Below, piece by piece: positions 7,148-62,437 of a stretch of 64,000 nucleotides of DNA. The DNA is taken from contig DAOPQD010000005.1 in NCBI GenBank assembly GCA_035347995.1, positions 6,433 to 70,432 on the forward strand, written 5' to 3'. A model generated the notes under the pieces. The model did not search any database, was not told the origin of the DNA, and worked only from the letters and a program-made list of their open reading frames with translations. Within the stretch, counting starts at the first letter, position 1, and the number at the start of each line of letters is the position of its first letter. A program made the translations under genes and the position numbers. The DNA comes from Anaerolineae bacterium (GTDB lineage Bacteria > Chloroflexota > Anaerolineae > B4-G1 > SLSP01).

Positions 7148-7161
7148 AAATTTTTCGTGTT

Positions 7162-8415
7162 TTAACGAGGATACAATCTTGGATGTGCGATCTCCGGATT
7201 CGGCAGCTTCCAGTGATCGCTGTCCTCGTAAGTAATATTCCGATCAATGACCCGGCGTTCAGGCGAGGCAAACAGGATCACATCGGACTCAATCATCCGC
7301 GCCGGGAAGATGACCATCCCCGAGCCAATGCGGACATGATGTCCTACCGCCGAACCGATCACCGACAGGCCGGTGTTTTCCAGGCGTCCGCCGAAGTGCG
7401 ATCGAATGGGAATAGTTGGGACCAGGTTGAAATCGGTGAAGGTGTTGCCCGCGCCGATGAACGTCTCCCGTCCCACGACGCACATCTGCAAGCAGGTATT
7501 CTGCGCCACCATGCAATCTTCCATCAGCACCGTTTCGAACAGCGAGGCGCGAAAAGGCAGGAACGTCCCGTCGCCGACGACGCTCAACAGCATCTGACAC
7601 CCGTGAGAGATATTCACATTGTCACCCAACACGCAGTTGGCGATCATGGCTCCCGCCCCAATCGTGACGTTGTTACCGATGATCGTCGGCCCCTGGATGA
7701 TTGCCGTAGGATCAATCTGACAATTCTTACCCACCTGCACCAGGGCAGAGCTCCCCAGCAGTTGCCGGCGCTCGAGCATCGCCTGCCACAACAAGCGCAG
7801 GTTCAGCCCCAAGTCCTTTTCCAGAGAGCGCTCGAAACGCGCCCCAATGGAAAAAATGCCAAACATGACGTTGGCAAAAAGAATGTGGATCCAATGCTCG
7901 ATAGAAAGGAACGCCTTGGTAGGCAGCTGATACACCAAATCGCCGTAGACGTTGGACATGTGAGTCGGCACATGGTAGTATCCCGCTTCTCGCGGCTCGG
8001 TGTGCATCACCAGCGGGCGCACCACCGGCTCGATGCCGTAGGGATAATACCACAAGTCCGCCACATACACGTTGCCCTGACGCCGAATGCCCCGCTGCAA
8101 ATAGATCGCATGTTGCGAAATGGCGGGGTCATCCAGCTCGAAGGCCACCTGACAGGCTTTCCCCAGGCTACGCGCCTGCACGATAAATTCGTCAATGAAG
8201 GGCTGATCGAAATAAAGATTCTCACGGTACACGAGCGTCTCGACGCGGTCATGCCCGATCTCGGAAAGAGAATCCACCTCCAACTCTTCGGTCGTGTAGG
8301 GTACCAGGATGTCCCGTTGATGAAGCCACAACGGCTTACACAGCACGCTCAGATCGCGCGCGGGCTCGTTGAACGGCGGTATTTTGCGTTTTTCGCGCAG
8401 GATGATTTTACGCAC
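7162..8415 (-). CDS. hexapeptide-repeat (left-handed beta-helix) protein with uncharacterised N-terminal half
   Basis: 417 aa. The C-terminal half shows imperfect [LIV]-G-x4 hexads (IIGNNVTIGAGAMIANCVLGDNVNISHGC..). I could not recognise the N-terminal ~210 aa. Confidence 0.65.
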   Translation of the reverse strand: MRKIILREKRKIPPFNEPARDLSVLCKPLWLHQRDILVPYTTEELEVDSLSEIGHDRVETLVYRENLYFDQPFIDEFIVQARSLGKACQVAFELDDPAISQHAIYLQRGIRRQGNVYVADLWYYPYGIEPVVRPLVMHTEPREAGYYHVPTHMSNVYGDLVYQLPTKAFLSIEHWIHILFANVMFGIFSIGARFERSLEKDLGLNLRLLWQAMLERRQLLGSSALVQVGKNCQIDPTAIIQGPTIIGNNVTIGAGAMIANCVLGDNVNISHGCQMLLSVVGDGTFLPFRASLFETVLMEDCMVAQNTCLQMCVVGRETFIGAGNTFTDFNLVPTIPIRSHFGGRLENTGLSVIGSAVGHHVRIGSGMVIFPARMIESDVILFASPERRVIDRNITYEDSDHWKLPNPEIAHPRLYPR

Positions 8416-10554: not shown

Positions 10555-11415
10555 CTAGAGCTCCCGAATGCGATCAATGAGCTTGTGAATCAAGCTGCGC
10601 TTGACGTCAGGGCGACGCGCCCCCATCATGGCCTCAGGACGTTCCTTCTCCTCCGGCCGAACGCTCCGCGGCTCCCCGACCGTGGCTTCAGCCATCTGCC
10701 TCGGCGGACGAATGATTTCGACCAACCCCGCTTGCAGCAGGCCATAGACGATCTTGCGAATCTGAAATTCGCTCATGTTGTTGTACTGTGCGATCTGCCG
10801 GATGGCGTTGCGCGGATTGACGAAGGAAATCACCCGCCACTCCTCCACAGTCAGGTTCACATCCCGCAACGGGGTGTTGGGCTTCTCGGCAAATTTCAGC
10901 GCCACGTCGAGGGAAGGGATCTCTTCCTGCAGCCGTTCCCACTCTTTGAGCCGCCGGCTCCCCTCCATAATGACGTTTTCCAGGGCAATCGAGCTCACCA
11001 GCTTGCCCTGAATGGGCAACTCGTTCGGCTCGAAGCGGAACGTCCCCGCATTCCAGGAAAACACGCTGTAAGCCGTGTCCGTGATGTGTTGGCGCACGAG
11101 CTGCACCAGTTCCTGCTGCTGGACATGTCCCGACTGGATAAGCATCAGCGCCACATCCCGGTCGGGTTTGCTACCCATGTTGGTCGCAATAACGCGCGCC
11201 TGCTCCGCCGTCAACTTACCCGCTTTTTGTAGCAAAGGCAACAACGCGAGTTCCTGTCCATCCGCCGCCGCGTACACTAACGCTCCCTCGCGGAAACACA
11301 GGTAGGCCTTGCTTTGCGCACCCTCCAGGTAGAGCGTCCCCGTTTTACGGGCCAGGTTGATCAGGTTCAGCAGTTGTGTGATGCCGAAATCCTTCAAGTT
11401 GCCTTTTAGCGCCAT
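10555..11415 (-). CDS. DUF4388 (PATAN-like) domain protein with C-terminal wHTH-like region
   Basis: 286 aa. N-terminus LKGNLKDFGITQLLNLINLARKTGTLYL is the DUF4388 signature as I remember it. The C-terminal RQIAQYNNMSEFQIRKIVYGLLQAGLVEI looks like a winged helix. 3-nt gap to the GTPase gene. Confidence 0.7.
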   Translation of the reverse strand: MALKGNLKDFGITQLLNLINLARKTGTLYLEGAQSKAYLCFREGALVYAAADGQELALLPLLQKAGKLTAEQARVIATNMGSKPDRDVALMLIQSGHVQQQELVQLVRQHITDTAYSVFSWNAGTFRFEPNELPIQGKLVSSIALENVIMEGSRRLKEWERLQEEIPSLDVALKFAEKPNTPLRDVNLTVEEWRVISFVNPRNAIRQIAQYNNMSEFQIRKIVYGLLQAGLVEIIRPPRQMAEATVGEPRSVRPEEKERPEAMMGARRPDVKRSLIHKLIDRIREL

Positions 11416-40966: not shown

Positions 40967-41383
40967 CTAAAGATGATAATCGCCCGCAGCTTCGGGCTGA
41001 TAGAGAATCTCCAGCACCCGCAGGTGACTGATGCCCGCGGGCACTTCCCATTCAAAGGTATCGCCCACGCGATATCCCAGCATGGCCATCCCGATAGGCG
41101 CGAGCACCGAAACCTTGTCCTGTGCAGGATCGGCATCCTCCGGGAAAACCAGCGTGACCGTCATCTCCTCCTCGAATTCCAAATCATACAAACGAGCTTT
41201 CGAGTTCATGGTGATGACATCCGGCGGGACCTCGGTGGGCGCGACGATCTGTGCGCGAGCCAGCTCCCCTTCCAGGCGGCGTAAGGCGTCGCGGTTGGCA
41301 TAACCGGTGCGGTGCAATTCGTCAATCAGTTCAGATAGACGGTGCTTGTCGAATTCGGTGATGTAAATAGCACGTTCGTTCAT
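40967..41383 (-). CDS. rnk: GreA/GreB-family protein, Rnk-like (regulator of nucleoside diphosphate kinase)
   Basis: 138 aa. C-terminal GreA-type domain VSVLAPIGMAMLGYRVGDTFEWEVPAG; short N-terminal helical part as in Rnk. Confidence 0.75.
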   Translation of the reverse strand: MNERAIYITEFDKHRLSELIDELHRTGYANRDALRRLEGELARAQIVAPTEVPPDVITMNSKARLYDLEFEEEMTVTLVFPEDADPAQDKVSVLAPIGMAMLGYRVGDTFEWEVPAGISHLRVLEILYQPEAAGDYHL

Positions 41384-41402: not shown

Positions 41403-41894
41403 TCAATGTTGACGCAGAAACTGACCCAGGTCAGGGTTCTGCTGAATGGCAAAATTTCCATGCCCGAAGGCGTGCAGCAATCTCCGCGATTGAGGGCTGT
41501 GAAATTGGGGAGCAGAGCCGCGCGTGCAAATATACGCCTTCCAAGTCGTTTGTTGTCGAAGCGGTTGAGCATGATTAGCGTTGAAATGCGGCGCAAGCGA
41601 TTGCAGCGTGTTGATGACTTGCTCGATGGCATGCGTGATATCGCTTCCCTTCAGCTCTACAATGCAAATGGTAGTGGACGCGCTTCCCTCAGGCGTGTAG
41701 AAAACCAATAGATCGCTCAAGGCGCCGCAGATGTGCAGTTCGGCACGCAAGGCACAGGGACGATTTGTCTGATCGTCAATGGCAAACCATTTCCAAGTCT
41801 CACCCTGGCGCGGGGTAACGCGCACGACAATACCTCTTTCTCTGTAAGCATTTCCTGGGTGCCGACAGCGTTCGCGCATGGTTGAACAAGGCAT
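41403..41894 (-). CDS. hypothetical 163-aa protein with a PD-(D/E)xK-like motif (predicted restriction-endonuclease fold)
   Basis: ..LSDLLVFY-x13-ICIVELKGSDITHAIEQV... 2 nt downstream of the ATPase stop. AT-richer than its flanks. The ORF call is firmer than the nuclease assignment, which rests on motif spacing only. Confidence 0.55.
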   Translation of the reverse strand: MPCSTMRERCRHPGNAYRERGIVVRVTPRQGETWKWFAIDDQTNRPCALRAELHICGALSDLLVFYTPEGSASTTICIVELKGSDITHAIEQVINTLQSLAPHFNANHAQPLRQQTTWKAYICTRGSAPQFHSPQSRRLLHAFGHGNFAIQQNPDLGQFLRQH

Positions 41895-41896
41895 CG

Positions 41897-43315
41897 TTAC
41901 TCAACCGCTCCCACAACATCAAGGACATCAAAATAAATTTGAGAAATACGGTCAGAAACCCGCCCAAAAGTGCCCCAGTCAATATCGCCCTGTTCATCCA
42001 GAATGCTGTGCGCGGTCCCCTTCTCAAAAAGGTAAACCGCAACTTGTGCCTGTGAGAGTAAGGCCGCCTCACGTTTCAGGAAGAAATGCTCAGCGGCTTC
42101 AGCAGGTCTTGGATGGCGTGCACCGGCTATCAGGTTGGCCAGGTGATCCACCACATACGGGCTATGGGTAGTGGCCATCACATTGATCCCGGCATTGACC
42201 ATCATGCCGAGGAATTCCACTAACCGTACCTGGGCTTCCGGATGAAGATTCATTTCGGGTTCATCAATCACCACTAAATCGCCTTCAGTGGCCAAATACC
42301 GCAGATAAAATACCAGCGGCGCCAATTCTTTGACCGCTGAAGAGGCTGCATTGATACCCAATGCCCCGCCAGGAATCGAGAAATGGATGCGTCGTTCGAT
42401 ACTTGGCTCCGGAGTGGAAAAGTCAACCTTTCCCCCCAATAAGTCATGTTCCAAAATTTCGGCAAGCCGCAGGTATTCGTTGATCTCAGGCTCTTGGCGC
42501 GCCTGCTGTTCCCGTTGAACGCGCGTGCCAGTCAAAAGAGCGGTCGTCATCCACCCCTGGTAAATAGTAATAGGAAAATTCACCATGGTGCGTTTTAGAT
42601 TCTCTGTCAAATCCGCATAAGATTGCATAGTCGAGCCATACCCAGGCAAGCCCCGCAATAATTGTCCAACTTGTTCTAACTGGGGGAAAAAACCACTACG
42701 TTCTGTGGGAAACGGCCAAACGAAGGCATATAAACAACGGTGTAACGCGGCAAAGATATTTCGGGCCACAAATTCACGGATGATGGTAGGATGTAGATTC
42801 GAGGCTTCGCCTTCGGTGTAAAAGTACAACGTTGTATTGCCAGTTTCTTTTAGCGCGCGCAAAACACCGCCGACCTGGTCTTTGACTTTCAGCTCAGCTA
42901 ATTTGTCCCATTTTTCTGAAGTATAATCTACTGTGACTTGTAGCTGTGTTTGTTTGAAATTGGTAACTGGCGCGCCAATCACGGTTGGGAGCCAATCTTG
43001 AGCAAGTCTGGCAATGCCGTCAAAGTACATCTCCCCATAGCGTTCCGCAAACGTCAATAAATCAACCTGAGAATTTCCTTTTCTTGATAATTCTTCAATA
43101 ATAGTTTCTATAACAGGATAATTCTCTGAAGTTTTTTGTTCTTTGAACGCATTTAAGTATTCTAACCAGCCATAACCGAATAGCCCCAGAAGGTTAGCAA
43201 TGGCATTTGCGGTCCAGGTTTTTCCCGCATTGCTAGGGCCAACAAAAATCGTCAGTGGGCGCAGTGCTATCTCGGCGTTTTCAACCGGGCCTAAATTTCT
43301 AATACTTATTTTCAT
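41897..43315 (-). CDS. ABC-type (AAA_15/AAA_21-like) ATPase with long helical insert
   Basis: 472 aa. Walker A GPSNAGKT, Walker B/D-loop LVVIDEPEMNLHP, H-loop ATTHSP. AT-rich 5' end. Confidence 0.85.
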   Translation of the reverse strand: MKISIRNLGPVENAEIALRPLTIFVGPSNAGKTWTANAIANLLGLFGYGWLEYLNAFKEQKTSENYPVIETIIEELSRKGNSQVDLLTFAERYGEMYFDGIARLAQDWLPTVIGAPVTNFKQTQLQVTVDYTSEKWDKLAELKVKDQVGGVLRALKETGNTTLYFYTEGEASNLHPTIIREFVARNIFAALHRCLYAFVWPFPTERSGFFPQLEQVGQLLRGLPGYGSTMQSYADLTENLKRTMVNFPITIYQGWMTTALLTGTRVQREQQARQEPEINEYLRLAEILEHDLLGGKVDFSTPEPSIERRIHFSIPGGALGINAASSAVKELAPLVFYLRYLATEGDLVVIDEPEMNLHPEAQVRLVEFLGMMVNAGINVMATTHSPYVVDHLANLIAGARHPRPAEAAEHFFLKREAALLSQAQVAVYLFEKGTAHSILDEQGDIDWGTFGRVSDRISQIYFDVLDVVGAVE

Positions 43316-43329
43316 GATTTTTACTTTCT

Positions 43330-45972
43330 CTACTTCCGCGACTTGCGCCCCTTAGGTTCCCCCGTCACGAGCCGCTGCCACTCGTACAATTTGGTCAGCG
43401 CCTCGAGTGGGGTGAGGCTGTTCACATCCAGCGTGCGCAGCGCCTCGATCACGGGGTGCTCTTTGGCGATGAGCAGCGGCTGGAACGGTTCCGGTTCCGC
43501 CGCGCCGGGCCGAAATTCGCCGCTCTCCAGCTGCACCAGCAACGCCTCGGCGCGATGGACGACCGGCGCGGGCACGCCCGCCAACCGCGCGACGTGAATG
43601 CCATAAGAGCGATCCGCCCCTCCCGGCGCCACCCGGTGCAGAAAAACCACGTCCTTCCCCTCTTCGACCACCGCCAGGTTGAAGTTACGGACGTGCGGGA
43701 GATGCTCTTCCATCTCGATGAGCTCGTGGTAGTGCGTGGCGAACAGGGTGCGCGCCCGGCGCTCCGGGTGATTGTGAAGATATTCTACCACAGCCCACGC
43801 AATTGCCATCCCGTCATAGGTGCTCGTGCCGCGCCCGATCTCGTCCAGAACCAGCAGGCTTTGCGGTGTGGCGTGATTGAGAATCGCGGCCGTTTCCACC
43901 ATCTCCACCATGAATGTGGATTGTCCCGCCGCCAGCTCGTCGGAGGCACCGATGCGCGTGAAGATGCGATCCGCTATGCCGATCTGCGCCGCGTCCGCCG
44001 GCACAAAACTGCCGATTTGCGCCATCAACACGATGAGTGCGCTTTGACGAAGGAACACTGATTTCCCGGCCATGTTAGGGCCGGTGATGATGTGGATCCG
44101 ACTGTCCTCATCCATCCGCAAGTCGTTGGGGACAAAGGGCGTCTTGAGCGTGCGTTCCACCACGGGATGCCGCCCGGCGCGGATATCGAGCACTGGCGCG
44201 GACGTGAGGGTGGGACGGACGTAGTGATAACGCGCGGCGACTTCCGCCAGCGCCGCCGCCACATCGAGCCGGGCCAGCGCCGCGGCGAGTGCCAGCAGCT
44301 CCGCCGCGTGAGCGGCCACCTGCGCACAGAGCTCGCGGAACAGCCGCGCCTCCAGCTCGTTGATGCGCTCCTCGGCATTGAGCACCAGGCTTTCGTATTC
44401 TTTGAGCTCCGGCGTGATGTAGCGCTCCGCGTTGACCAACGTCTGTTTGCGGATGTAATCCGCCGGCACGGCCCCGGCATTGGCGTGCGTGACCTCGATG
44501 TAGTAGCCAAAGACCTTATTGTAGCCCACCTTCAGGGTCTTGATGCCCGTGCGCGCGCGTTCCTTGCCCTCCAGGGCAGCGATCCACTCACGGGCGTCCC
44601 GGCTCGCCAGGATGATGCCATCGAGTTCGGCGGAAAAGCCGGGGCGGATGAGGCCGCCGCCATTCGCCTGCGGCGGGGGGTCGTCTACCAGCGCCGCCGC
44701 GATGAGCGCGGCCACCTCGGGCAAGGGCGCCAGGCCTTCGGTCAGCGCCGCAAAGCCCGGGGGCGCAGTCCGCGCCTCTGCCACGAGGGCGCACAGCTCA
44801 GGCACCGTCTCCAGCGCGGCGCGGATGCCGACGAGGTCACGAGGAGGCGCTTTCCCCGCCGTGACGCGATTGACCATCCGCTCCAGGTCGGGGACTGGTT
44901 TGAGCAAACGGCGCACGGAGGCCCGCAACAAGCCCTCTTCCACCAGCCCCTGCACCTGATCCAGGCGCGTCTCCAGGGCGGTGATGTCGAGCAACGGACG
45001 TTGCAGCCGGTGCAGCAGCAGCCGGCCGCCCATCGCCGTCAACGTCATATCGAGCACCCCCAGCAACGAACCGTGCTTCTCGCCGCGCAAGGTCTCCGTG
45101 AGTTCCAGATTGCGCCACGTCGCCGGATCCATCGCCATGAAGTGCCCGGTCGAATACGTCATCAGCCCCACGATCTGCGGCAGCATCCCCTGCTGCGTCT
45201 CCTGCAGATACGCCAGGATCGCGCCGGCAGCCCGCACCGCCAGCGGCTTGCCCTCGCAGCCGAAGCCCTCCAGCGTGCGCACCCCGAAATGTTCCAGGAG
45301 CGTTTGCCGCGCGGTCGTCTCCTCGAAGCGGTAAGCGGCCCACGGCGTGAAATGCGCCGGCAACGACCCGGCGAGCGCCTCTTCGGGGGATGTTTCTGGC
45401 TGATCGGAAGCGCGCTCCTTCCACGAGCCGACCTTGGGGAAAAGCACCTCACGCGGCTGAAGGCGCGCCAATTCCTGCCGCGCCGCCGCGAGGATGTCGC
45501 CATCCTCGCTGAGCTGGGTCGCGCCGAACTCGCCGGTGGAAATCTCCGCGTAGGCGATGCCCGCGCGTTCGCCCTCGATCACCACAGCGGCGAGGTAATT
45601 CGGACGTTTCTCGTCGAGCAGTGCCGGCTCGATGAGCGTGCCGGGCGTGACAACGCGCTCGATGCGGCGCTCCATCGGCCCACGACCGTCAGGCTCGCCT
45701 ACCTGCTCGGCAAGCGCCACACGATAGCCTTTCTCGATGAGGCGGGCGACGTAGTTTTCTACCGCGTGATAGGGCACCCCCGCCATCGGAATGCGCACGC
45801 CCTTCGCCACCGGGCGCGAGGTGAGGACAATATCCAGCTCCCCGGCCACCAGTTCGGCGTCGGCGTCGAAGGTCTCATAGAAATCGCCCAGCCGGAAGAA
45901 CAGGATAGTGTCCGGATAGCGGGCTTTCAATTCCAAATATTGCTTGCGGATGGGGGTCGTGTCTTCACTCAT
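43330..45972 (-). CDS. mutS: DNA mismatch repair protein MutS
   Basis: Starts MSEDTTPIRKQYLELKARYPD. Also GPNMAGKS, STFMVEM, DEIGRGTSTYDG. The track ORF extends 35 codons further upstream without homology. Confidence 0.95.
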   Translation of the reverse strand: MSEDTTPIRKQYLELKARYPDTILFFRLGDFYETFDADAELVAGELDIVLTSRPVAKGVRIPMAGVPYHAVENYVARLIEKGYRVALAEQVGEPDGRGPMERRIERVVTPGTLIEPALLDEKRPNYLAAVVIEGERAGIAYAEISTGEFGATQLSEDGDILAAARQELARLQPREVLFPKVGSWKERASDQPETSPEEALAGSLPAHFTPWAAYRFEETTARQTLLEHFGVRTLEGFGCEGKPLAVRAAGAILAYLQETQQGMLPQIVGLMTYSTGHFMAMDPATWRNLELTETLRGEKHGSLLGVLDMTLTAMGGRLLLHRLQRPLLDITALETRLDQVQGLVEEGLLRASVRRLLKPVPDLERMVNRVTAGKAPPRDLVGIRAALETVPELCALVAEARTAPPGFAALTEGLAPLPEVAALIAAALVDDPPPQANGGGLIRPGFSAELDGIILASRDAREWIAALEGKERARTGIKTLKVGYNKVFGYYIEVTHANAGAVPADYIRKQTLVNAERYITPELKEYESLVLNAEERINELEARLFRELCAQVAAHAAELLALAAALARLDVAAALAEVAARYHYVRPTLTSAPVLDIRAGRHPVVERTLKTPFVPNDLRMDEDSRIHIITGPNMAGKSVFLRQSALIVLMAQIGSFVPADAAQIGIADRIFTRIGASDELAAGQSTFMVEMVETAAILNHATPQSLLVLDEIGRGTSTYDGMAIAWAVVEYLHNHPERRARTLFATHYHELIEMEEHLPHVRNFNLAVVEEGKDVVFLHRVAPGGADRSYGIHVARLAGVPAPVVHRAEALLVQLESGEFRPGAAEPEPFQPLLIAKEHPVIEALRTLDVNSLTPLEALTKLYEWQRLVTGEPKGRKSRK

Positions 45973-45978
45973 ACGCGC

Positions 45979-46007
45979 ATTATACCCGTGGGATAAAAAT
46001 CGGGCAA
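45979..46007 (-). promoter_or_regulatory. mutS promoter TTGCCC-17-TATAAT positioned for a leaderless transcript
   Basis: Perfect -10 at 45984-45979 (minus strand). Only 6 nt (gcgcgt) separate it from the ATG at 45972, and there is no SD. Confidence 0.45.
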
Positions 46008-46078
46008 GAATCACCGGAGGGCAAAATCGCTCTGGGGGGGCGCAGTCGCCCGTGACGTCTCGACGCGGGATAACCAAC

Positions 46079-53085: not shown

Positions 53086-53189
53086 CCAAGCCGTGACCCC
53101 GCGCAGAACGCGCACACTTGTCAGACTTCCAAGAGTGAGTATACTGAAAACACTGGCGTATGACAGTAACTCGCACACGAGGGAATAAC

Positions 53190-54190: not shown

Positions 54191-55666
54191 ATGGGCCTCT
54201 GGGAAGCATATTACACCGCCACCAGCGTCGAAGAAGCGGTGCGCCTGCTCGCCGAGTATGGGGAGCGCGCGCGCATCGTCGCCGGCGGCACCGATTTGCT
54301 CATCGAGATCGAGCATCAGACGCGCACGCCTGCCGTGCTCATTGACATCACCCGCATTGGCGGATTGGACGAGCTCCGCCTGCGGGATGACGGCCTCATC
54401 CATCTGGGACCGATGGTGACGCACGCGCAGGCAGCCGCCTCGCCACTGCTCCAGGAGCACGCCCTGCCGCTGGCCCAGGCCTGTTGGGGGGTCGGCGCGC
54501 CGGCGCTCCGCAACCGGGGCACCCTCGCCGGGAATCTGGTCACCGCCTCGCCGGCCAACGATACCATCACCGCGCTCCGTGCCCTCGACGCCCATGTCAC
54601 CCTGCGAAGTGCGCACGGCGAACGGCAGGTCCCCCTCGCCGATTTCTACACCGGCGTGCGGCGTACCATCATGGAACCCGAAGAGCTGCTCGTAGGGATC
54701 AGCTTTAAGCCCCTCAAAGAGTCGTATCAAGGGATTTATCTCAAGCTGGGACTGCGGCGCGTCCTTGCCATTGCCGTCACGAATGTCGCCATCGTGCTCG
54801 GCCTCGAGGGAGAACGGGTGAGCGAAGCGCGCCTGGCGCTGGGGAGCGTCGCCCCCACCATCATCCGCGCGCCTGAAGCCGAAGCAGCGCTGCACGGACA
54901 GCCGCTGGATGAAGCGCACATCGCCCAGGCGGCGGAGCTGGCAGCGCAAGCCGCACGGCCCATTGATGACGTGCGCGGCTCCGCCTGGTTCCGCAAGGAA
55001 GAGGTGGCCGCGCTGGTCCGGCGGGGCCTGCAGGCCCTGGCGCGCCATGAACCGCGACTCGACCTGCCCCAACCCGAAACGATGCCGCTGTTGTGGGGCA
55101 AATCCCGCTGCCGTCCGCGACTGGCCGGCCCCACGATCGCCCATCACAGCGAGGGCGAGGAGCCCATCCAGTTCACCGTCAACGGTGAGAATGTCGCCGT
55201 GCGCGGCGCCAACGGCACCACCCTGCTGCATCTCCTGCGCGATGACCTGGGACTCACGGGCACCAAAGTCGGCTGCGAGGAGGGCGAATGCGGCGCCTGC
55301 ACCGTCTGGATGGACGGCGTCGCCGTGCTGGCGTGTCTTACCCCCGCGCCGAGAGCGCACGGGACCAACATCGTCACCATCGAGGGGCTCTCCAAAGGCG
55401 AGTCCCGGCATCCCGTCCAGGAGGCTTTTGTGGAGGAAGACGCCGTCCAGTGCGGCTATTGCACGCCGGGCTTCGTGATGAGCGCCGCGAAGCTATTGGA
55501 AGAACGTCCGCATCCCAGCCGGGAGCAAATTGTCGCCGCCCTCAGTGGCAATCTCTGCCGCTGCACGGGCTACTACAAGATCATCACCGCTGTGGAAAAC
55601 GCCAGCCGGCAACTAAGCGAGAAGCGAGCAGACGCCAGCGATGAAACGCACAGTGCCGACAGTTGA
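54191..55666 (+). CDS. xanthine-dehydrogenase-family FAD-binding subunit fused to a [2Fe-2S] subunit
   Basis: N-terminus AGGTDLL.. (CoxM-like). C-terminus GCEEGECGACTV..CGYCTPGF..NLCRCTGY (CoxS-like). Confidence 0.85.
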   Translation: MGLWEAYYTATSVEEAVRLLAEYGERARIVAGGTDLLIEIEHQTRTPAVLIDITRIGGLDELRLRDDGLIHLGPMVTHAQAAASPLLQEHALPLAQACWGVGAPALRNRGTLAGNLVTASPANDTITALRALDAHVTLRSAHGERQVPLADFYTGVRRTIMEPEELLVGISFKPLKESYQGIYLKLGLRRVLAIAVTNVAIVLGLEGERVSEARLALGSVAPTIIRAPEAEAALHGQPLDEAHIAQAAELAAQAARPIDDVRGSAWFRKEEVAALVRRGLQALARHEPRLDLPQPETMPLLWGKSRCRPRLAGPTIAHHSEGEEPIQFTVNGENVAVRGANGTTLLHLLRDDLGLTGTKVGCEEGECGACTVWMDGVAVLACLTPAPRAHGTNIVTIEGLSKGESRHPVQEAFVEEDAVQCGYCTPGFVMSAAKLLEERPHPSREQIVAALSGNLCRCTGYYKIITAVENASRQLSEKRADASDETHSADS

Positions 55667-57371
55667 CGCGGATCGCATCAACCTCTACCTGCGAACCTAC
55701 TATTCCCTGCTCCGCACTACCGAGGAGGTGCAAATCCGCACGCTGGAAGAGACGCACACCTCGCTGCACTCCATCCTGCACCAGGGAGCCAGGGAGATGG
55801 CGGTGGATATGTCCGCCTTCATCTACAGCGGCCTGCGCCTCCCTCAATGCATTCGGGACACCCGGTTGATCGTGTTGGGACAGACCGAGGAGGTTTTTCG
55901 GCGCCGCGGCTTCGCCGACTTCAGCTCCTGGACGCCGGTGTCGGCGCCGGGGCGCCGGCGCCGGATGCTCTACGACGGCAAAGAGACCCTCGCCGCCTTC
56001 ATCGCCAGCATCTCCGACGTGGATGACCTCATTCCCATCCTCGTCGCCTTTCAGATCGAATGGAATAAGATTCACCTGCTGATCACGCAGGCGGGATTGC
56101 AGGGGCGTGTGGCCGCCTGGGCGGAAACAAGAGCCGCCGACACCACATTGAACGAAGAGCTGCAGAAGGCGCTGGGCATCACCGCCGAAGAGTGGGAACG
56201 GCTCACGCGCGTCTGGGGCGCCGACCTGCCAGGATTCCTGGCGGACATCGCCGCACGCCGCAAACGGATGGCCGTGCGGCTTCTCGCCGGTTCGTATGTG
56301 GATTACCGACGCGCGACGCAGCGATGGTGGTGGCACGTGAGCGACAACGCTCCCATTGACCTGCAAGACCGGGACGTCTACTTCGTCTCCAGCAACACGC
56401 ACAGCCTGACCAACATGCTCACCGGTTTCGCCCAACGGCACGAGCAGCTGCTCATGGATTACATCGCCCATTGCGGCGACGTCGAGCTGCAGACAGAGGC
56501 GCACCACATCCAGCAGGGGGTCGTCCGCAGCAATTGGGCGAATTTCCTCTACTACGTGCTCAAGAAGTACCTGGCGACCCCAGAGGGCGCGGCCTTGTCG
56601 CAGGAACGCAAAGAATATGAAGCGGCTCACGGCGTCACCCGCATCCCCAGCAGCCAGACCTTCGACCTCGAGGCGCAGGTGATTGAGCTGGCGCGCCTCG
56701 ACCCGCAAGTGGTAGATCGGCGACTGCGGGATTTGCCGCTGGAACGCCTGGCGGACAGCAAATCCGTCATCCTCAACATTGATTATCCGTTGGGATTTGC
56801 CGCCTATCATTTGCTCTCGCGCATCGTGGCGAACGTGGGCGACCTGCGCGGCCTCTACGTCATCGGCAAAGCCGCCACGCTCAACGCGCGCATCGGCGAT
56901 GTGTTGATCCCCAACGTGGTCTATGACGAGCATTCGCACAATACCTATCTTTTCAACAATGTTTTCACGGCCACGGATGTGGCGTGCTATGCCGTCTACG
57001 GGGACGTGCTCGACAATCAACGCGCGCTGACGGTGTGGGGGACTTTCCTGCAGACCGAAGCCTACATGAAGGGCTTCCTCGACGCCGGCTACACCGACGC
57101 AGAAATGGAAGCCGGGCCCTATCTCTCGGCGGTCTACGAATTCATCCGCCCGCGCCGCTATCCTACCGATGAAGTGGTCAATCTGTACCGCACGCCCTTC
57201 GAGATCGGCATCCTGCACTACGCCTCGGACACGCCCATCAGCAAGGGACAGAACCTGGGCGCGCAGAATCTCTCGTACTACGGCATGGATCCGACGTATG
57301 CGGCGACGGTGGCCGTGCTGCGCCGCATCTTCACTCTGGAAACGGCGGACTTGCCCCGAGCCGACAAATAA
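55641..57371 (+). CDS. hypothetical 576-aa protein with a C-terminal nucleoside-phosphorylase-like (PNP_UDP_1-like) region
   Basis: NIDYPLGFAAYHLLSRIVANVGDLRGLYVIGKAATLNARIGDVLIP resembles the phosphorylase-superfamily core. N-terminal ~380 aa not recognised. 26-nt overlap with the upstream gene. Confidence 0.55.
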   Translation: MKRTVPTVDADRINLYLRTYYSLLRTTEEVQIRTLEETHTSLHSILHQGAREMAVDMSAFIYSGLRLPQCIRDTRLIVLGQTEEVFRRRGFADFSSWTPVSAPGRRRRMLYDGKETLAAFIASISDVDDLIPILVAFQIEWNKIHLLITQAGLQGRVAAWAETRAADTTLNEELQKALGITAEEWERLTRVWGADLPGFLADIAARRKRMAVRLLAGSYVDYRRATQRWWWHVSDNAPIDLQDRDVYFVSSNTHSLTNMLTGFAQRHEQLLMDYIAHCGDVELQTEAHHIQQGVVRSNWANFLYYVLKKYLATPEGAALSQERKEYEAAHGVTRIPSSQTFDLEAQVIELARLDPQVVDRRLRDLPLERLADSKSVILNIDYPLGFAAYHLLSRIVANVGDLRGLYVIGKAATLNARIGDVLIPNVVYDEHSHNTYLFNNVFTATDVACYAVYGDVLDNQRALTVWGTFLQTEAYMKGFLDAGYTDAEMEAGPYLSAVYEFIRPRRYPTDEVVNLYRTPFEIGILHYASDTPISKGQNLGAQNLSYYGMDPTYAATVAVLRRIFTLETADLPRADK

Positions 57372-57401: not shown

Positions 57402-59648
57402 ATGAAAAAAACTTACGTTGGTGAAGCGCATCCCCGCATTGACGGCCTCGCCAAGGTCACGGGGCAGGCACCCTATTCCGGCGATTTCAACATGGAGGGC
57501 CAGCTGCACATGAAACTGCGCTTCGCCGGCCGCCCGCACGCGCGGGTGCTCGGCGTGGACGCCAGCAAGGCCCTGGCTGTGCCCGGCGTTGTCGCGGTCT
57601 TCACCTCACGGGATGTGCCCGTGAACGAATACGGCCTGCAATATCCCGATCAACCGGTGCTGTGCGGCCCTGGCGATCCCAAAGAGGGCACCGATATCGC
57701 TCGTTTTGTGGGCGATCAAATCGCGGCGGTGGTCGCGGAGACCGAAGAAGCCGCGGCCAGGGGACGCGATCTCCTCGAGGTGGACTTCGAGGAGTTGCCG
57801 GCCGTGACCGATCCGCGCGCCGCGCTGGAACCGGGTGCGCCCATCCTGCACCCCGCCTACCCCGGCACCCCCATCCACCCGGAGCTGATCTTCGAGGGCA
57901 ACCTCGCCTCGCGGCATCGCATCCGGCGGGGCGATGTAGACGCCGCCTGGGATCAGGCCGCTGTCATCGTCGAATCGGACTACGAGATTCCGGGGCAGGA
58001 GCACGCCTTCCTGCAGCCTGAAGCGGCGCTCGCTTACATAGATGAAGCGGGGCGCGTGACTATCATCGCCAGCACGCAATGGATTCACGAGGACCGCCGT
58101 CAGATCGCGCACGCGCTGGGGCTGCCCGAAGAGCAGGTGCGGATCATTCTGCCTGCCATTGGCGGCGCTTTTGGGGGCAAAGAAGACCTCTCCGTGCAGA
58201 TCGTCGCCGCGCTGGCCGCGATGAAATTGCAACGTCCCGTCAAAATCGTGTGGACGCGGCGCGAGTCCATCATCGGACATCACAAACGCCATCATGTCTT
58301 TGCCCGCGCGCGCTGGGCGGCGGATGCCGAAGGGCGACTTCTGGCCGCCGAGACCCAGGTCGTCGCCGACGCCGGCGCTTACGTGTACACCACCAACAAG
58401 GTCCTGGGCAATCTGTTGCTCACCGTCAACGGCGCCTACCGCATCCCGAACGTCAAGACCGAGGTGCTGGGAATCTACACCAACAACGTGCCGGGCGGCG
58501 CTTTCCGGGGCTTCGGCGCGCCGCAGGGCAATTTCATCGCCGAATCGCAGATGAACAAACTGGCCGAGGCTCTGGGACTCGATCCGGTGGAAATCCGCCT
58601 GCGCAATCTCGTCCATGACGGCGACCCGATGCCGTGGGGCAAACCGCTCCCCGATGACGGGCGCGGGCTGGAGGAAAGCCTCCTCGCGGCGGCGCGAGCG
58701 CTGGGCTGGGAACAAACGCCGCAGGGCTGGCGCGCTCCCCGGGTCGAGCCGCGCCCCGGCGATCCACCCACCCGGCGGCGGGGGGTGGGGATCGCCCTGG
58801 CGTTCAAAAACGTGGGGTTTTCCTTCGGCTATCAGGAAAATGCCTGGGCCGCCATCGAATTGCGCGGCGATGCCGAGATCGAAAGCGCGACCGTCTTCGC
58901 CGCCAGCGCCGATGTGGGACAGGGAACGCGCACGGTGATCCGACAGATGGCAGCGGAGGCGTTGGGAGTTCCCATCGAGCGTGTCGAGGTGGCCGCCGCC
59001 GATAGCGCGATCACCCAAAGCTCCGGCTCCTGCTCCGCCTCGCGGATGACGTTTATGATCGGCAATGCAGTCCGGGGGGCGGCGGCCGCGGCGCTGGAGA
59101 AATGGCGCGCGGAGGAACGTCCCGCCAGGGCTGAAGTCACCTATCTCGCGCCGCAGACTACGCCCATTGATCCGCTGACCGGCTACGGACATCCCAATTT
59201 CTCGTATGGCTACGTCGCTCTCGGCGTGGACCTCAGCATTGACACGGAGACGGGGGAGCTGCACGTGGCCAAAGTCGCCTGCGCCAACGATGTCGGACAG
59301 GCGATCAATCCCCGGCTGGTGCAAGGGCAAATCGAGGGCGGGGTCATCCAGGCGCTGGGCTGGACCACCACGGAGCACTTCATCGAGAAAGACGGCCGGC
59401 CGCTCACCGATTCGCTCAGCACGTATCTGATTCCCACCATCGCCGATATTCCCGATCAGCTAGAGACGCTCATCCTCGAGAATCCAGAACCCAACGGTCC
59501 GTGGGGCGCTCGCGGCATGGGGGAGATGCCCTTCATCCCAATGGCAGCGGCCATGCATCAGGCAGTGCATGAGGCGACGGGCGTCTGGTACAACCGCTTC
59601 CCCTTCAACGCCGAGCGGATTTTGCGCGGAATTAAGGGGATCTATTGA
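57402..59648 (+). CDS. xanthine-dehydrogenase-family molybdopterin-binding large subunit
   Basis: 748 aa. GEAHPRIDGLAKVTGQAPY, GGAFGGKE, GFGAPQ, GEMP. CoxL/XdhB-like throughout. Confidence 0.9.
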   Translation: MKKTYVGEAHPRIDGLAKVTGQAPYSGDFNMEGQLHMKLRFAGRPHARVLGVDASKALAVPGVVAVFTSRDVPVNEYGLQYPDQPVLCGPGDPKEGTDIARFVGDQIAAVVAETEEAAARGRDLLEVDFEELPAVTDPRAALEPGAPILHPAYPGTPIHPELIFEGNLASRHRIRRGDVDAAWDQAAVIVESDYEIPGQEHAFLQPEAALAYIDEAGRVTIIASTQWIHEDRRQIAHALGLPEEQVRIILPAIGGAFGGKEDLSVQIVAALAAMKLQRPVKIVWTRRESIIGHHKRHHVFARARWAADAEGRLLAAETQVVADAGAYVYTTNKVLGNLLLTVNGAYRIPNVKTEVLGIYTNNVPGGAFRGFGAPQGNFIAESQMNKLAEALGLDPVEIRLRNLVHDGDPMPWGKPLPDDGRGLEESLLAAARALGWEQTPQGWRAPRVEPRPGDPPTRRRGVGIALAFKNVGFSFGYQENAWAAIELRGDAEIESATVFAASADVGQGTRTVIRQMAAEALGVPIERVEVAAADSAITQSSGSCSASRMTFMIGNAVRGAAAAALEKWRAEERPARAEVTYLAPQTTPIDPLTGYGHPNFSYGYVALGVDLSIDTETGELHVAKVACANDVGQAINPRLVQGQIEGGVIQALGWTTTEHFIEKDGRPLTDSLSTYLIPTIADIPDQLETLILENPEPNGPWGARGMGEMPFIPMAAAMHQAVHEATGVWYNRFPFNAERILRGIKGIY

Positions 59649-59668
59649 ACATTAAAGGGGAATGAAAA

Positions 59669-61078
59669 ATGTATCTCAAAAAAATCCGATTAAAAAACAT
59701 CAAATGTTTCTCGGATATCACCCTGGATTTTTCACCGGAGGGACAGCCGCGGCTTTGGACTGTGATTCTCGGACAGAACGGATTAGGCAAAAGCACCTTG
59801 CTTCAAGCTATTGGCATTGTATTGGCCGGCCCCATAGCTATACGTGAATTGCTCCCTGTAGCCGAAGGATGGGTGAAACGCGACTGCCCCTATGGAGAGA
59901 TTGAAGCCGAGCTTTTGTGGACCGAAGGCGATGCACAAATTCCAAAATGGCCCAAAAAAACGCCCTACACTGTAAAATACGCCATAGTTGGTGAAGATAT
60001 AGACAATGGAAGCCTGCCTTCTAATCTGGCGTCACAATATACTGGCGTTCCAATTGTGACAGAATGGGCGGGGGACGGCATTTCTAAAAAACAGGAAAAT
60101 ATTTCTAAGGATTTGAATCGCCTGAGACAGACAGCCTACGCGGAGGGAAAGACCGGCTGGCTGGGGTGCGGATATGGACCTTTCAGGCGTTTGAGTGGCG
60201 GAGCACAGAATGCAGATAGAATTTTGTATTCTGGTAGAAAATCTGCCCGCTTCATCACCTTATTCAGAGAAGACGCAGCCCTCACAAATGCCACCGAGTG
60301 GCTAATCTCACTCTACAACACCGGGCGAGATGGAAATGAATTAAGCCAGCGGACCTTGAGACAGGTAAAACGAATTTTCGAAGCCGAATTCTTACCTCGC
60401 CCTGCAGAATTGTTAGTAAATGCTCAATCAGCGCTTCTAAGGATTGAGGGACATAATCCGGTTCCTTTTCGAGACTTGAGTGATGGATATCGAAGTATGC
60501 TGGCGATGGGGATTGACCTGCTAAGATGGGTTAGCGTAGCTTTTCCAGAAAAAGAAGATCTCATGGAGGTCGCTGGGGTAGTGGTCATTGATGAACTCGA
60601 TGCCCATGCCCATCCCGCATGGCAACGTGAGATCGGCCATTGGCTACGACGAAAATTTCCAAAATTACAATTTATCATTGCAACCCATAGTCCTTTTTTG
60701 GCACAAGTCGCAGATGAACCCGGCGGGAATATTGTTTTAGTCCAGACCGAAGCAGGGGTACAAAAACGCGATGATGTGGAACTGGTTGAAGCCTGGCGAG
60801 CAGACCAAATTCTTACAGATCTTATGGAATTAAACTCTACTCGCTCACCAGAAGTGGATCGAAAAATCCATAAACTCAATGAATTAAGTCAAAAACGGGA
60901 AGCATTAGAGCAAAAACAGGAAAGGCTCCCCCCAGCACAAGAGGATGAATACCAACAACTCAGACTATGGGTTGAACAACTCCCGCCAGCCATTGAGGAT
61001 CCATGGCAACGGCGGCAGGCAGAAAGGGTTCAACAAGAAATCGCCCAAGCGCTTCCACAACTAGAGGAGCTTGAATGA
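59669..61078 (+). CDS. ptuA: Septu-type PtuA-like ABC/AAA ATPase
   Basis: 469 aa. IRLKNIKCF, Walker A GQNGLGKST, Walker B VVVIDELDAHAHP, H-loop ATHSP. AT-rich. Confidence 0.75.
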   Translation: MYLKKIRLKNIKCFSDITLDFSPEGQPRLWTVILGQNGLGKSTLLQAIGIVLAGPIAIRELLPVAEGWVKRDCPYGEIEAELLWTEGDAQIPKWPKKTPYTVKYAIVGEDIDNGSLPSNLASQYTGVPIVTEWAGDGISKKQENISKDLNRLRQTAYAEGKTGWLGCGYGPFRRLSGGAQNADRILYSGRKSARFITLFREDAALTNATEWLISLYNTGRDGNELSQRTLRQVKRIFEAEFLPRPAELLVNAQSALLRIEGHNPVPFRDLSDGYRSMLAMGIDLLRWVSVAFPEKEDLMEVAGVVVIDELDAHAHPAWQREIGHWLRRKFPKLQFIIATHSPFLAQVADEPGGNIVLVQTEAGVQKRDDVELVEAWRADQILTDLMELNSTRSPEVDRKIHKLNELSQKREALEQKQERLPPAQEDEYQQLRLWVEQLPPAIEDPWQRRQAERVQQEIAQALPQLEELE

Positions 61079-61830
61079 TAAAAGTTCGCCGTGGGCCACA
61101 ACCGGAAGGATTTCATGAACGAGCGATTAGCTGGCAAACTCGCTTTGAGCAAGAGCGAGAAAGTAATCCTTCGCTTACCATCACAAGATTCTGGGACAGA
61201 ATCCGAAATGAAATCCGCGCAGATGCAGAGCACCTATATCATGTTTCGCATGGGAAATGTGCTTTCTGTGAAAGTTACATGGCTGATGTATCTACCCCAC
61301 ACATAGAACACTATCGCCCCAAGAGCAAATTTCCGGAGCTGGCATTCGTTTGGGACAACTGGTTACTGTCATGCCAATGCTGCAATGGCAAAAAATGGGG
61401 ACACTTTCCAATATGTGAAGATCTGCCATGTTTGATAGATCCTGGAAATGAAGATCCAGAAATGCACATAACCTTCGAAGGATACACTCCAATCTCAAAA
61501 ACACCGCGTGGCGAAAAAACGATTGAATTGCTCGGGTTAAGACGAAGTCCCCTGGAAGACGAACGTAGCCGATGGTTAAACTATGTCAGCATATTATTGC
61601 TGAGCTGGTGTAATACTAAAGATTCAATGCTAAAAGACGAAATACGCGAGCTGCTTATCTGGGCCATGCAAGATGAGGCGCCATACGCCGCAATGACACG
61701 CTGCTTCTTGCAAAAGTATGCCCCGCGATTGGCTTCAAAAGCACATCCCCCTGTAACCTGCCCCAGGCCCTTGATGCGTATTCAAGAGCTAGTTGAACAA
61801 TGGAGTCATGAATTCGTTGGACTCGAGTGA
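61075..61830 (+). CDS. ptuB: Septu-type PtuB-like HNH endonuclease
   Basis: 251 aa. CAFCE..HIEHYRPKS..NWLLSCQCCN (HNH with two CxxC knuckles). ATGA overlap with the ATPase gene. Confidence 0.75.
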   Translation: MIKVRRGPQPEGFHERAISWQTRFEQERESNPSLTITRFWDRIRNEIRADAEHLYHVSHGKCAFCESYMADVSTPHIEHYRPKSKFPELAFVWDNWLLSCQCCNGKKWGHFPICEDLPCLIDPGNEDPEMHITFEGYTPISKTPRGEKTIELLGLRRSPLEDERSRWLNYVSILLLSWCNTKDSMLKDEIRELLIWAMQDEAPYAAMTRCFLQKYAPRLASKAHPPVTCPRPLMRIQELVEQWSHEFVGLE

Positions 61831-62437
61831 GAAGAGCCTCCGTTTCGGAGTCTTGGGCGGGAGCTTTGATCCGCCGCATTACGGCCATCTGGCGCTGGCG
61901 GAGACCGCGCGGGTGCAGCTGCAACTGGCGCGCGTGCTGTTCGTCCCAGCGGGAGAGCCGCCTCACAAAACGGACGTGGATTTGAGCCCGATTGCGAAAC
62001 GGGTCGCGCTCGTCCAGGCCGCCATCGCCGACAACGGCTCCTTCGCCCTCTCCCGCGTGGATGTGGATCGCGCCGGCCCCCATTACACGGTGGACATGCT
62101 GCGCCTGCTGCGCACGGAATTCCCGCAGGTGACCGACTGGTTTCTGCTGCTCGGCGAGGATTCGCTCCACGATTTTCTGAGCTGGCGCGCGCCAGAGGAA
62201 ATCCTCGAGCTGGCAGAACTCGCGGTGATGCGGCGCCCCGAAAAGCCCGCGCCGCTTGAGACATTGCAGGAACGCCTTCCCACGCTGGAGCGGCGGCTCA
62301 CCTGGTTGGATGTGCCACCGCTCCACCTCAGCGCCACCGAACTACGGCGCCGCGTCCGCGAGGGGTTGCCCCTGCGTTACCTGGTCCCGTTGCCGGTAGA
62401 GGTACTGATCCGCAAACACCAGCTCTACACGGGCTGA
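61808..62437 (+). CDS. nadD: nicotinate-nucleotide adenylyltransferase
   Basis: FGVLGGSFDPPHYGHL and SATELR. ATG at 61808 overlaps the ptuB-like 3' end by 23 nt; TTG alternatives lie at 61793 and 61817. Confidence 0.9.
   Translation: MNSLDSSEKSLRFGVLGGSFDPPHYGHLALAETARVQLQLARVLFVPAGEPPHKTDVDLSPIAKRVALVQAAIADNGSFALSRVDVDRAGPHYTVDMLRLLRTEFPQVTDWFLLLGEDSLHDFLSWRAPEEILELAELAVMRRPEKPAPLETLQERLPTLERRLTWLDVPPLHLSATELRRRVREGLPLRYLVPLPVEVLIRKHQLYTG

Follow-up and report, generated by a model that had tools for sequence, protein, structure and literature searches.

The 64-kb window analysed here (the whole 64,000-nt stretch of contig DAOPQD010000005.1 from an Anaerolineae bacterium of the Chloroflexota) carries a two-gene cassette, ptuAB, which, judged from its sequence, is a genuine stand-alone (retron-independent) type I Septu defence system of a known type. 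The pair is inserted between XDH_L, which encodes the molybdopterin-binding large subunit of a xanthine dehydrogenase (XDH) family enzyme, and nadD, which encodes nicotinate-nucleotide adenylyltransferase. The insertion is old and patchily distributed and is not a recent, one-off event. We assign a probability of about 0.88 to the joint reading, in which ptuAB would be a stand-alone type I Septu system that is transcribed by read-through, has captured the start of nadD and stems from an old insertion with subsequent allele exchange.

Results

The ptuA gene (59669..61078, plus strand) encodes a 469-residue ABC/SMC-type ATPase and ptuB (61075..61830, plus strand) a 251-residue HNH nuclease, and the two genes share an ATGA overlap at positions 61075-61078. 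Both open reading frames, their strand and their overlap had been described in an earlier, sequence-only reading of the window, and the ATPase and HNH/zinc-knuckle motifs that it quoted were all present at the amino acid positions that were checked. PtuA contains the Walker A motif GQNGLGKST (residues 35-43, in which the lysine is K41), the ABC signature LSDGYR (residues 270-275), the Walker B motif VVVIDELDAHAHP (residues 304-316, with D309/E310) and the H-loop ATHSP (residues 338-342, with H340), as well as a helical C-terminal tail of ~70 residues. It matched the PADLOC PtuA1 profile PDLC00295 with an E-value of 5.7e-90, residues 1-458 aligning with profile positions 1-441 of 451, while 15 more PADLOC PtuA1 profiles matched below 1e-30 and Pfam recognised AAA_21, AAA_15 and AAA_23. 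Its sequence matches in the PDB included Septu PtuA (8ee4) and related entries, together with the PtuA chains of the retrons Ec78 and Ec83. An apparently truncated PtuA in L013, which was called at 193 residues, was discarded as a gene-caller artefact; the DNA encodes the full protein with 100% identity.

In PtuB, the motifs CAFCE (residues 62-66), HIEHYRPKS (residues 76-84) and NWLLSCQCCN (residues 95-104) were found, and in a 36-sequence PtuB alignment the four cysteines of the Cys4 zinc site (C62, C65, C100 and C103) and the residues at the HNH catalytic positions (H79 and N95) were invariant. The protein, which is intact up to its family-typical C-terminus (...LE*), matched PADLOC PtuB1 PDLC00337 at 6.3e-45 over profile positions 1-213 of 216 and Pfam HNH with 22.1 bits (cut-off 21.4), and its sequence matches in the PDB were PtuB/TIGR02646 chains. 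An AlphaFold2 model of PtuB had a mean predicted local distance difference test score (pLDDT) of 91 and a helical C-terminal domain. When this model was compared with the PDB using Foldseek, the best seven matches were all PtuB chains, and the best full-length superposition was that with the E. coli Septu PtuAB (8eea_G), with template modelling (TM) scores of 0.64/0.68. The Septu identity that had been proposed from the sequence alone was borne out by the full-length PADLOC PtuA1 and PtuB1 matches, the matches to solved PtuA and PtuB chains and the PtuB fold; the profile scores, on which that proposal had been made to depend, were high. Four features of type I Septu are found here: a PtuA profile match, the PtuA catalytic motifs, a PtuB-type HNH protein and adjacent genes on the same strand. 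The adjacent reverse transcriptase and msr/msd non-coding RNA (ncRNA) that would define a type I-A retron were not found, the 64-kb window having no Rfam family match and the neighbours being XDH_L and nadD. Moreover, at 469 residues PtuA is close in length to stand-alone PtuA (8ee4, 465 residues) as against ~550 residues in retron PtuA.

The cassette lies in a foreign, low-GC segment of ~2.2 kb (59630..61840, plus strand), which was delimited by comparison with relatives in which the site is empty. A scan for XDH_L in species-representative genomes gave 67 loci, nearly all from Anaerolineae or Thermoflexia metagenome-assembled genomes (MAGs). In 15 related Anaerolineae loci, nadD stands directly after XDH_L with a spacer of 5-140 nt and no PtuA or PtuB there; these 15 are the empty loci of the state-mapped tree, and L079 and L085, which are outside that tree, are empty as well. 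The nearest empty alleles, L065 and the metagenomic contig L097 (same lineage), have ~96% DNA identity to the window, and BLASTN homology to them stops at 59629 and resumes at 61841, with ~91 nt of the empty allele corresponding to 2,211 nt in the window. On the left, XDH_L ends in RGIKGIY* in the window as opposed to RGL[KR]GK* in the empty alleles and outgroups (the tails of 20 relatives were compared), which places the left edge within the last few XDH_L codons. The right edge lies 10 nt past the ptuB stop codon (61828-61830). This comparison with insert-free relatives, which the sequence-only reading had itself proposed, thus yielded the breakpoints 59629|61841. The view of the pair as acquired and accessory fits both the 15 empty loci and a cassette GC content at third codon positions (GC3) of about half that of the host genes; universal presence in the lineage, on which that view could have failed, is not what the 15 related loci show.

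Neither terminal direct nor terminal inverted repeats were found in a search of 59560-61900, and no mobility genes lie within the cassette. A transposon-like or integron-like mechanism was dropped because such repeats are absent. An attachment site at a tRNA or other RNA gene was also set aside, as the 64-kb window has no tRNA genes and no Rfam family matches, and so was a plasmid or phage vehicle: the best PtuA matches on plasmids had ≤31% identity, those on phages were only partial, and no vector was identified.

Several empty XDH_L-nadD spacers have a structure of their own. In one subclade (L085, positions 762-900, and L038, L030, L035, L040 and L079), the spacer is a long imperfect palindrome built of tandem GGAGTAA/TTACTCC units, e.g., taaggagtaaggagtaaggag...ctactccctactccctactcc, and in L058 and L059 it contains a perfect GC-rich hairpin between A and T runs. 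These palindromes and hairpins could be terminators, attenuators or recombination-prone structures.

The insertion removed the ancestral XDH-nadD spacer together with the ribosome-binding site, the start codon and the first six codons of nadD, which is normally an essential gene of NAD biosynthesis. In the empty allele, AGGAG is followed after 6 nt by an ATG, and the encoded protein begins MSSRPV-RFGVFGG, whereas NadD of the window begins MNSLDSSEKSL-RFGVLGG; codons 1-11 of nadD (61808-61840) are foreign, with 23 nt coming from the 3' terminus of ptuB in a different reading frame and 10 nt from the foreign DNA after the ptuB stop codon. The gene (61808..62437, plus strand, 209 residues) was identified by NCBIfam NF000840, which scored 183 bits (cut-off 150) from residue 14 of the 214-residue open reading frame that opens at TTG 61793. 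All of the candidate starts, TTG 61793, ATG 61808 and TTG 61817, are upstream of the ptuB stop codon. The preferred prediction is ATG 61808, which would fall within the terminal part of ptuB, in the +1 frame; gene callers mostly picked the 209-residue product that starts there, and this ATG is conserved in L099, while L086 has CTG at the position and a TTG equivalent to 61817 is available to it. TTG 61817, which was favoured since it is conserved in L086, was rejected, as L099 keeps ATG 61808 and lacks that TTG. The only in-frame start past the overlap, TTG 61853, is unlikely because it cuts into the conserved RFGVLGGSFDPPH core, the strand before GGSFDPPH. Whichever start is used, the translation signals of nadD are predicted to lie in foreign DNA. 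The sequence-only reading had anticipated both the overlap of the ptuB 3' end with the nadD start region and a remodelled nadD 5' end, and these agree with a frame that opens at 61793 and with the 11 foreign codons; the independent downstream start that it had named as a counter-indication comes down to TTG 61853. The RNA fold at the ptuB/nadD overlap was no more stable than those of shuffled sequences (z = 0.47).

The same arrangement was found in other lineages. In L086, whose host has ~96% DNA identity, the cassette has identical junctions, and its nucleotide identity to the window was 93-95.5% in the cassette and 95-96% in the flanks. L099 is more divergent (83% identity to the window in NadD, 81% in PtuA and 72% in PtuB), and its geometry is as in the window, i.e., the stop codon, 10 nt and then CGTTTCGG, while its NadD begins MNSQNLFEKPL-RFG, a derived form that is common to the window, L086 and L099. 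The common geometry and the derived NadD N-terminus indicate that the insertion predates the split of the window and L099; between the two, the NG86 method gave no finite synonymous divergence (dS) for ptuA or ptuB, which were saturated, and a dS of 0.83 for nadD. L087 also has ptuAB between XDH_L and nadD (identities to the window of 74% for XDH_L, 61% for NadD, 75% for PtuA and 61% for PtuB), with differing junction sequences and without an overlap with nadD. A recent acquisition does not accord with the same junction in L099 and a related cassette in L087. In a neighbour-joining analysis of ~58 close homologues, the junction PtuAs formed one clade, (L087,(L099,(L086,window))), and their next relatives, which are 63-70% identical, are found in unrelated gene contexts.

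In the XDH tree, a neighbour-joining tree without support values, the empty L065, L019 and L097 fall within the clade of the window, L020 and L022 are sister to it, and L024 stands next to L087. The empty alleles retain the ancestral XDH tail as well as 58-91 nt of GC-rich sequence that is missing from the filled alleles, and hence they cannot have arisen from filled ones by deletion. The distribution of filled and empty sites, which is unattainable by simple deletion, points to allele exchange through the flanking genes, and some exchange is needed because the filled L099 brackets the empty L065 (96% nucleotide identity). As far as the sequences allow a judgement, the pattern would require either that alleles moved, in one or the other direction, by homologous recombination within XDH_L and nadD or that presence and absence of the cassette have coexisted as a very long-lived polymorphism.

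Between the window and L086, the ratio of nonsynonymous to synonymous divergence (dN/dS) was 0.073 for ptuA and 0.185 for ptuB as compared with 0.057-0.165 for the neighbouring housekeeping genes, and the catalytic residues of PtuA and PtuB are intact in all four lineages (the window, L086, L099 and L087). Both observations argue against a silent remnant. The dS of ptuA in the same comparison was 0.28, about twice that of ptuB and the flanking genes (0.13-0.14), which could reflect a locally different mutation rate or a small recombination tract.

The AT-richness that had been claimed for the segment was also seen, with a GC content of 0.47 in ptuAB as against 0.65 in XDH_L and 0.66 in nadD and a GC3 of 0.42-0.43 as against 0.78-0.83 in the flanks. 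Across the four lineages, the cassette has a GC3 of 0.35-0.49, compared with 0.75-0.81 in host genes, despite saturated synonymous sites. An unameliorated GC content was rejected as a sign of recent acquisition, since the cassette is equally AT-rich in L099 and L087 and its synonymous sites are saturated. The polarised substitutions depended on the outgroup, with 63 AT>GC and 26 GC>AT changes when L099 was used and 46 and 47, respectively, when L087 was used. Selection for AT-rich or rare-codon usage and slow amelioration from a lower starting GC are both possible explanations of the persistent low GC.

As regards transcription, the cassette is part of a co-directional gene string (GT2, XDH_FS, DUF6909, XDH_L, ptuA, ptuB and nadD), which is followed by an opposite-strand ABC exporter. 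XDH_L (57402..59648, plus strand, 748 residues; Pfam MoCoBD_1, MoCoBD_2 and Ald_Xan_dh_C) has its stop codon at 59646-59648, and the ATG of ptuA follows at 59669 after the 20-nt spacer that had been noted before (59649..59668, plus strand), which holds a purine-rich, Shine-Dalgarno-like AAAGGGGAA that is conserved in L086. No sigma-70-like promoter and no intrinsic-terminator-like site was found on the plus strand from the XDH_L stop codon to nadD, and the empty junction of L097 has neither a promoter-like nor a terminator-like site. The sole good plus-strand promoter-like site in the scanned 53-64 kb is at 53118-53145, upstream of the GT2 gene. Given the close spacing and the absence of promoter-like and terminator-like sites, read-through from the XDH operon promoter is predicted as the most likely mode of expression, and the cassette and nadD would then be transcribed from the XDH operon with 53118-53145 as the candidate promoter.

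The gene order is identical on all of the contigs that encode the exact PtuA and PtuB proteins, which come from many metagenome assemblies, and the cassette is present on every contig with the exact PtuA or XDH_L of the window. No empty junction was found within the window's own population, the metagenome scan having given one contig, from a sister lineage (L097). The names of the MAGs and samples suggest that these Anaerolineae may come from sludge digesters. Among the neighbouring genes, that of a 576-residue DUF6909 protein (55641-57371; Pfam 2.7e-217, no NCBIfam match) is located between the genes for the FAD/2Fe-2S and molybdopterin subunits of the XDH-type operon and overlaps the upstream gene by 26 nt; as this position is kept in nearly all of the Anaerolineae relatives, the protein, which is so far uncharacterised, probably serves the XDH-type enzyme as an accessory subunit or in its maturation. 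In L087, a gene for a toxin-like DUF4258 protein (10808-11146) takes the place after nadD that the convergent ABC exporter has in the window.

The XDH_L-nadD junction has also received other modules. It is empty in 15 loci and holds Septu in the window, L086, L087 and L099, a HicB-HicA pair in L074 (9438-10126) and a HEPN protein with a nucleotidyltransferase (MNT) in L063 (~6840-7543), i.e., varied cargo or none at one and the same junction between core genes, which is what characterises a core-gene-flanked hotspot. The L074 locus contains a run of N and a duplicated stretch that resemble an assembly artefact, and in L063 there is an apparent frameshift close to the 3' end of XDH_L.

A second low-GC two-gene cassette is present in the window at 41403-43315 on the minus strand (GC 0.41-0.55), with GC3 values of 0.47 and 0.55 as against 0.81 in mutS. 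It encodes a 472-residue ATPase (AAA_15/AAA_21; PADLOC PD-T4-4_A at 5.4e-49 and PDC-M47A at 1.2e-46, full length) and a 163-residue partner with a weak PDC-M29B match. Its same-strand neighbours, mutS (43330-46077) and an rnk/greA-like gene (40967-41383), are ~14 and ~19 nt away, and like ptuAB the cassette is promoterless and sits within a gene string. In L098, whose MutS is 88% identical, rnk directly follows mutS, which indicates that this cassette is an insertion as well. Four MutS homologues from Anaerolineae (P0125, P0145, P0160 and P0173) are ~1,320-1,360 residues long and contain LAGLIDADG/intein-type domains (Pfam PF14528 and PF14890), which suggests intein-containing mutS alleles in relatives; mutS of the window has none.

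Discussion

The identification of ptuAB as stand-alone Septu has to be set against two other assignments. The pair might be the effector module of a type I-A retron (Ec78/Eco7-like) whose reverse transcriptase and multicopy single-stranded DNA (msDNA) are encoded elsewhere in the genome; the PADLOC profiles ATPase_I-A (2.3e-39) and HNH_I-A (7.6e-17) also match, and the best PDB sequence matches include PtuA and PtuB of the retrons Ec78 and Ec83. We consider this extremely improbable, since PtuA1 scored 300 bits against 134 for ATPase_I-A and PtuB1 152 bits against 60 for HNH_I-A, the NCBIfam retron-Ec78 equivalogs fell far under their cut-offs (129.6 vs. 500 and 50 vs. 150), the 64-kb window has no Rfam family match, the flanking genes are XDH and nadD, and PtuA is without the ~80-residue N-terminal extension of retron PtuA (PMC12819146). 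Very improbable, too, is some other system of an ATPase and a nuclease, such as a type IV methyl-directed restriction enzyme or an OLD/Gabija-like system, even though both proteins have PADLOC mREase_IV matches (5.3e-33 and 1.4e-13) and the ABC-ATPase N-terminus resembles OLD-family and Rad50 proteins: the mREase_IV matches are partial and much weaker, there is no Toprim domain, and the PtuB model resembles PtuB chains in fold over its full length, the helical C-terminal domain included.

Two further alternatives leave the Septu assignment in place and concern the history and the present state of the pair. That the junction acquired ptuAB twice, once for the window, L086 and L099 and once for L087, with ancestral empty sites and no single old insertion with exchange, is a possibility that we take seriously while leaning against it. 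L087 has 64 nt between the ptuB stop codon and the conserved nadD core where the others have 10 nt, lacks the ptuB/nadD overlap and has a different XDH tail, empty-site lineages separate it from the window clade on the XDH tree, GC3 is still ~0.4 in both cassettes, and other modules have demonstrably landed at this junction. However, the L087 PtuA groups with those of the window, L086 and L099 to the exclusion of ~55 other close homologues, the divergence of the cassette tracks that of the host genes, and the position of the filled L099 around the empty L065 requires some allele exchange regardless of the number of gains. It could also be argued that ptuAB no longer serves in defence, as a decaying or silent remnant that persists only because the nadD start lies inside it: the cassette lacks its own promoter, and since loss of the ptuB 3' end would take the nadD start with it, a portion of the cassette is protected whether or not defence brings a benefit. 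Such anchoring would protect merely the last ~25 nt of ptuB, whereas both open reading frames are of full length with intact catalytic residues in four lineages and dN/dS is low across the whole of ptuA (0.07) and ptuB (0.19), which makes a remnant quite improbable. A stand-alone Septu system from an old insertion with allele exchange is the reading that we prefer.

Several points weigh against this reading. The PDB sequence matches of PtuA are confined to the C-terminal half of its ATPase domain, and the identity of PtuB to the characterised E. coli PtuB is low (16-25%), so that the trigger and the substrate may differ. The TIGR02646 type, which the sequence-only reading had named for PtuB, was reached only at 47.2 bits, just below the curated NCBIfam cut-off of 52.15. 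In addition, the Septu assignment was made at the level of individual PADLOC hidden Markov model (HMM) profiles. The predicted nadD start, ATG 61808, is only 2 nt after GGAG and is CTG in L086, and the direction of allele exchange, gain or loss, could be either.

Stand-alone Septu of E. coli and Bacillus reportedly goes back to Doron et al. 2018. According to Li et al. 2024, as cited in PMC12819146, stand-alone Septu PtuAB is a hexameric, inflammasome-like assembly that nicks DNA, ATP is reported to inhibit this nicking, and the trigger is thought to be phage proteins. Moreover, defence by Septu Ec-B88 requires the Walker A and B motifs of PtuA and the H-N-H motif of PtuB and behaves like abortive infection (PMC13096335). 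All of the motifs required in Septu Ec-B88 are present in PtuA and PtuB of the window. By analogy, the ATPase heads of PtuA, an ABC-type ATPase, would mediate its assembly into an oligomeric platform; the helical extension at the PtuA C-terminus may restrain the HNH nuclease PtuB, and phage infection may release or activate the nuclease. At the level of the locus, filled and empty alleles would be exchanged by homologous recombination via the conserved flanking genes, as has been proposed for lateral exchange in core-gene-flanked hotspots (PMC10250203, PMC10121019).

As Septu is already well characterised, the system adds nothing new in kind. Confident Septu calls are extended to uncultured, high-GC Anaerolineae, which metagenome assemblies commonly contain, and the empty-allele comparison gives base-pair breakpoints for a scar-free insertion of a defence cassette. 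The embedding of the pair is only mildly unusual; it bears on the movement and persistence of defence genes elsewhere than in classical islands. Beyond what is known of core-gene-flanked hotspots, the increment consists in the rebuilt 5' end of an essential gene, the reuse of the junction by small modules and the pattern of allele exchange. A broader proposal, that in these Anaerolineae small promoterless defence or toxin cassettes enter the short spacers of co-directional housekeeping genes and spread among relatives via flanking recombination, with capture of the nadD start entrenching the Septu pair, is one that we offer as a speculation and regard as unlikely; the second ATPase cassette between mutS and rnk suggests that this mode of insertion is general. 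If the proposal were true, the pair would be removable only by replacement of the whole allele and never by simple deletion, a genetic entrenchment that could explain its long retention, strong purifying selection and persistently foreign base composition.

When compared with the stand-alone Septu systems of E. coli and Bacillus (structures 8EE4, 8EE7 and 8EEA of Li et al. 2024; Septu Ec-B88, PMC13096335), ptuAB has the same overlapping, same-strand gene pair, an ABC-type ATPase of ~465 residues with Walker A, signature, Walker B and H-loop motifs, and an HNH nuclease of 215-250 residues with a Cys4 zinc site and a helical C-terminal domain. It differs from the characterised systems in its sequence, with low identity to the known proteins (about 17-25% for PtuB), in its host, an uncultured member of the Anaerolineae (Chloroflexota), and in its setting, a string of housekeeping genes instead of a defence island or mobile element, with the start codon of an essential gene predicted within ptuB. 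At one position of the PtuA signature motif, where retron PtuA has Q and E. coli Septu has L, the residue here is Y. With the type I-A retrons (Ec78/Eco7, Ec83), it shares homologous PtuA and PtuB proteins and an equal layout of the HNH active site; unlike them, it has no adjacent reverse transcriptase, ncRNA or msDNA, and its PtuA is without the retron-binding N-terminal extension and helical flap (PMC12819146). The junction itself resembles cDHS1 and cDHS2 of Pseudomonas aeruginosa (PMC10250203) and the E. coli hotspots (PMC10121019), where a junction of conserved genes likewise takes up varied defence or toxin modules and no mobile-element scars are seen. In contrast to those hotspots, whose islands have a median of 26 kb, a single two-gene cassette of 0.8-2.2 kb is accommodated here, the site lies within a co-directional gene string with gaps of ≤20 nt, and the 5' end of the downstream essential gene has been overwritten by the cassette.

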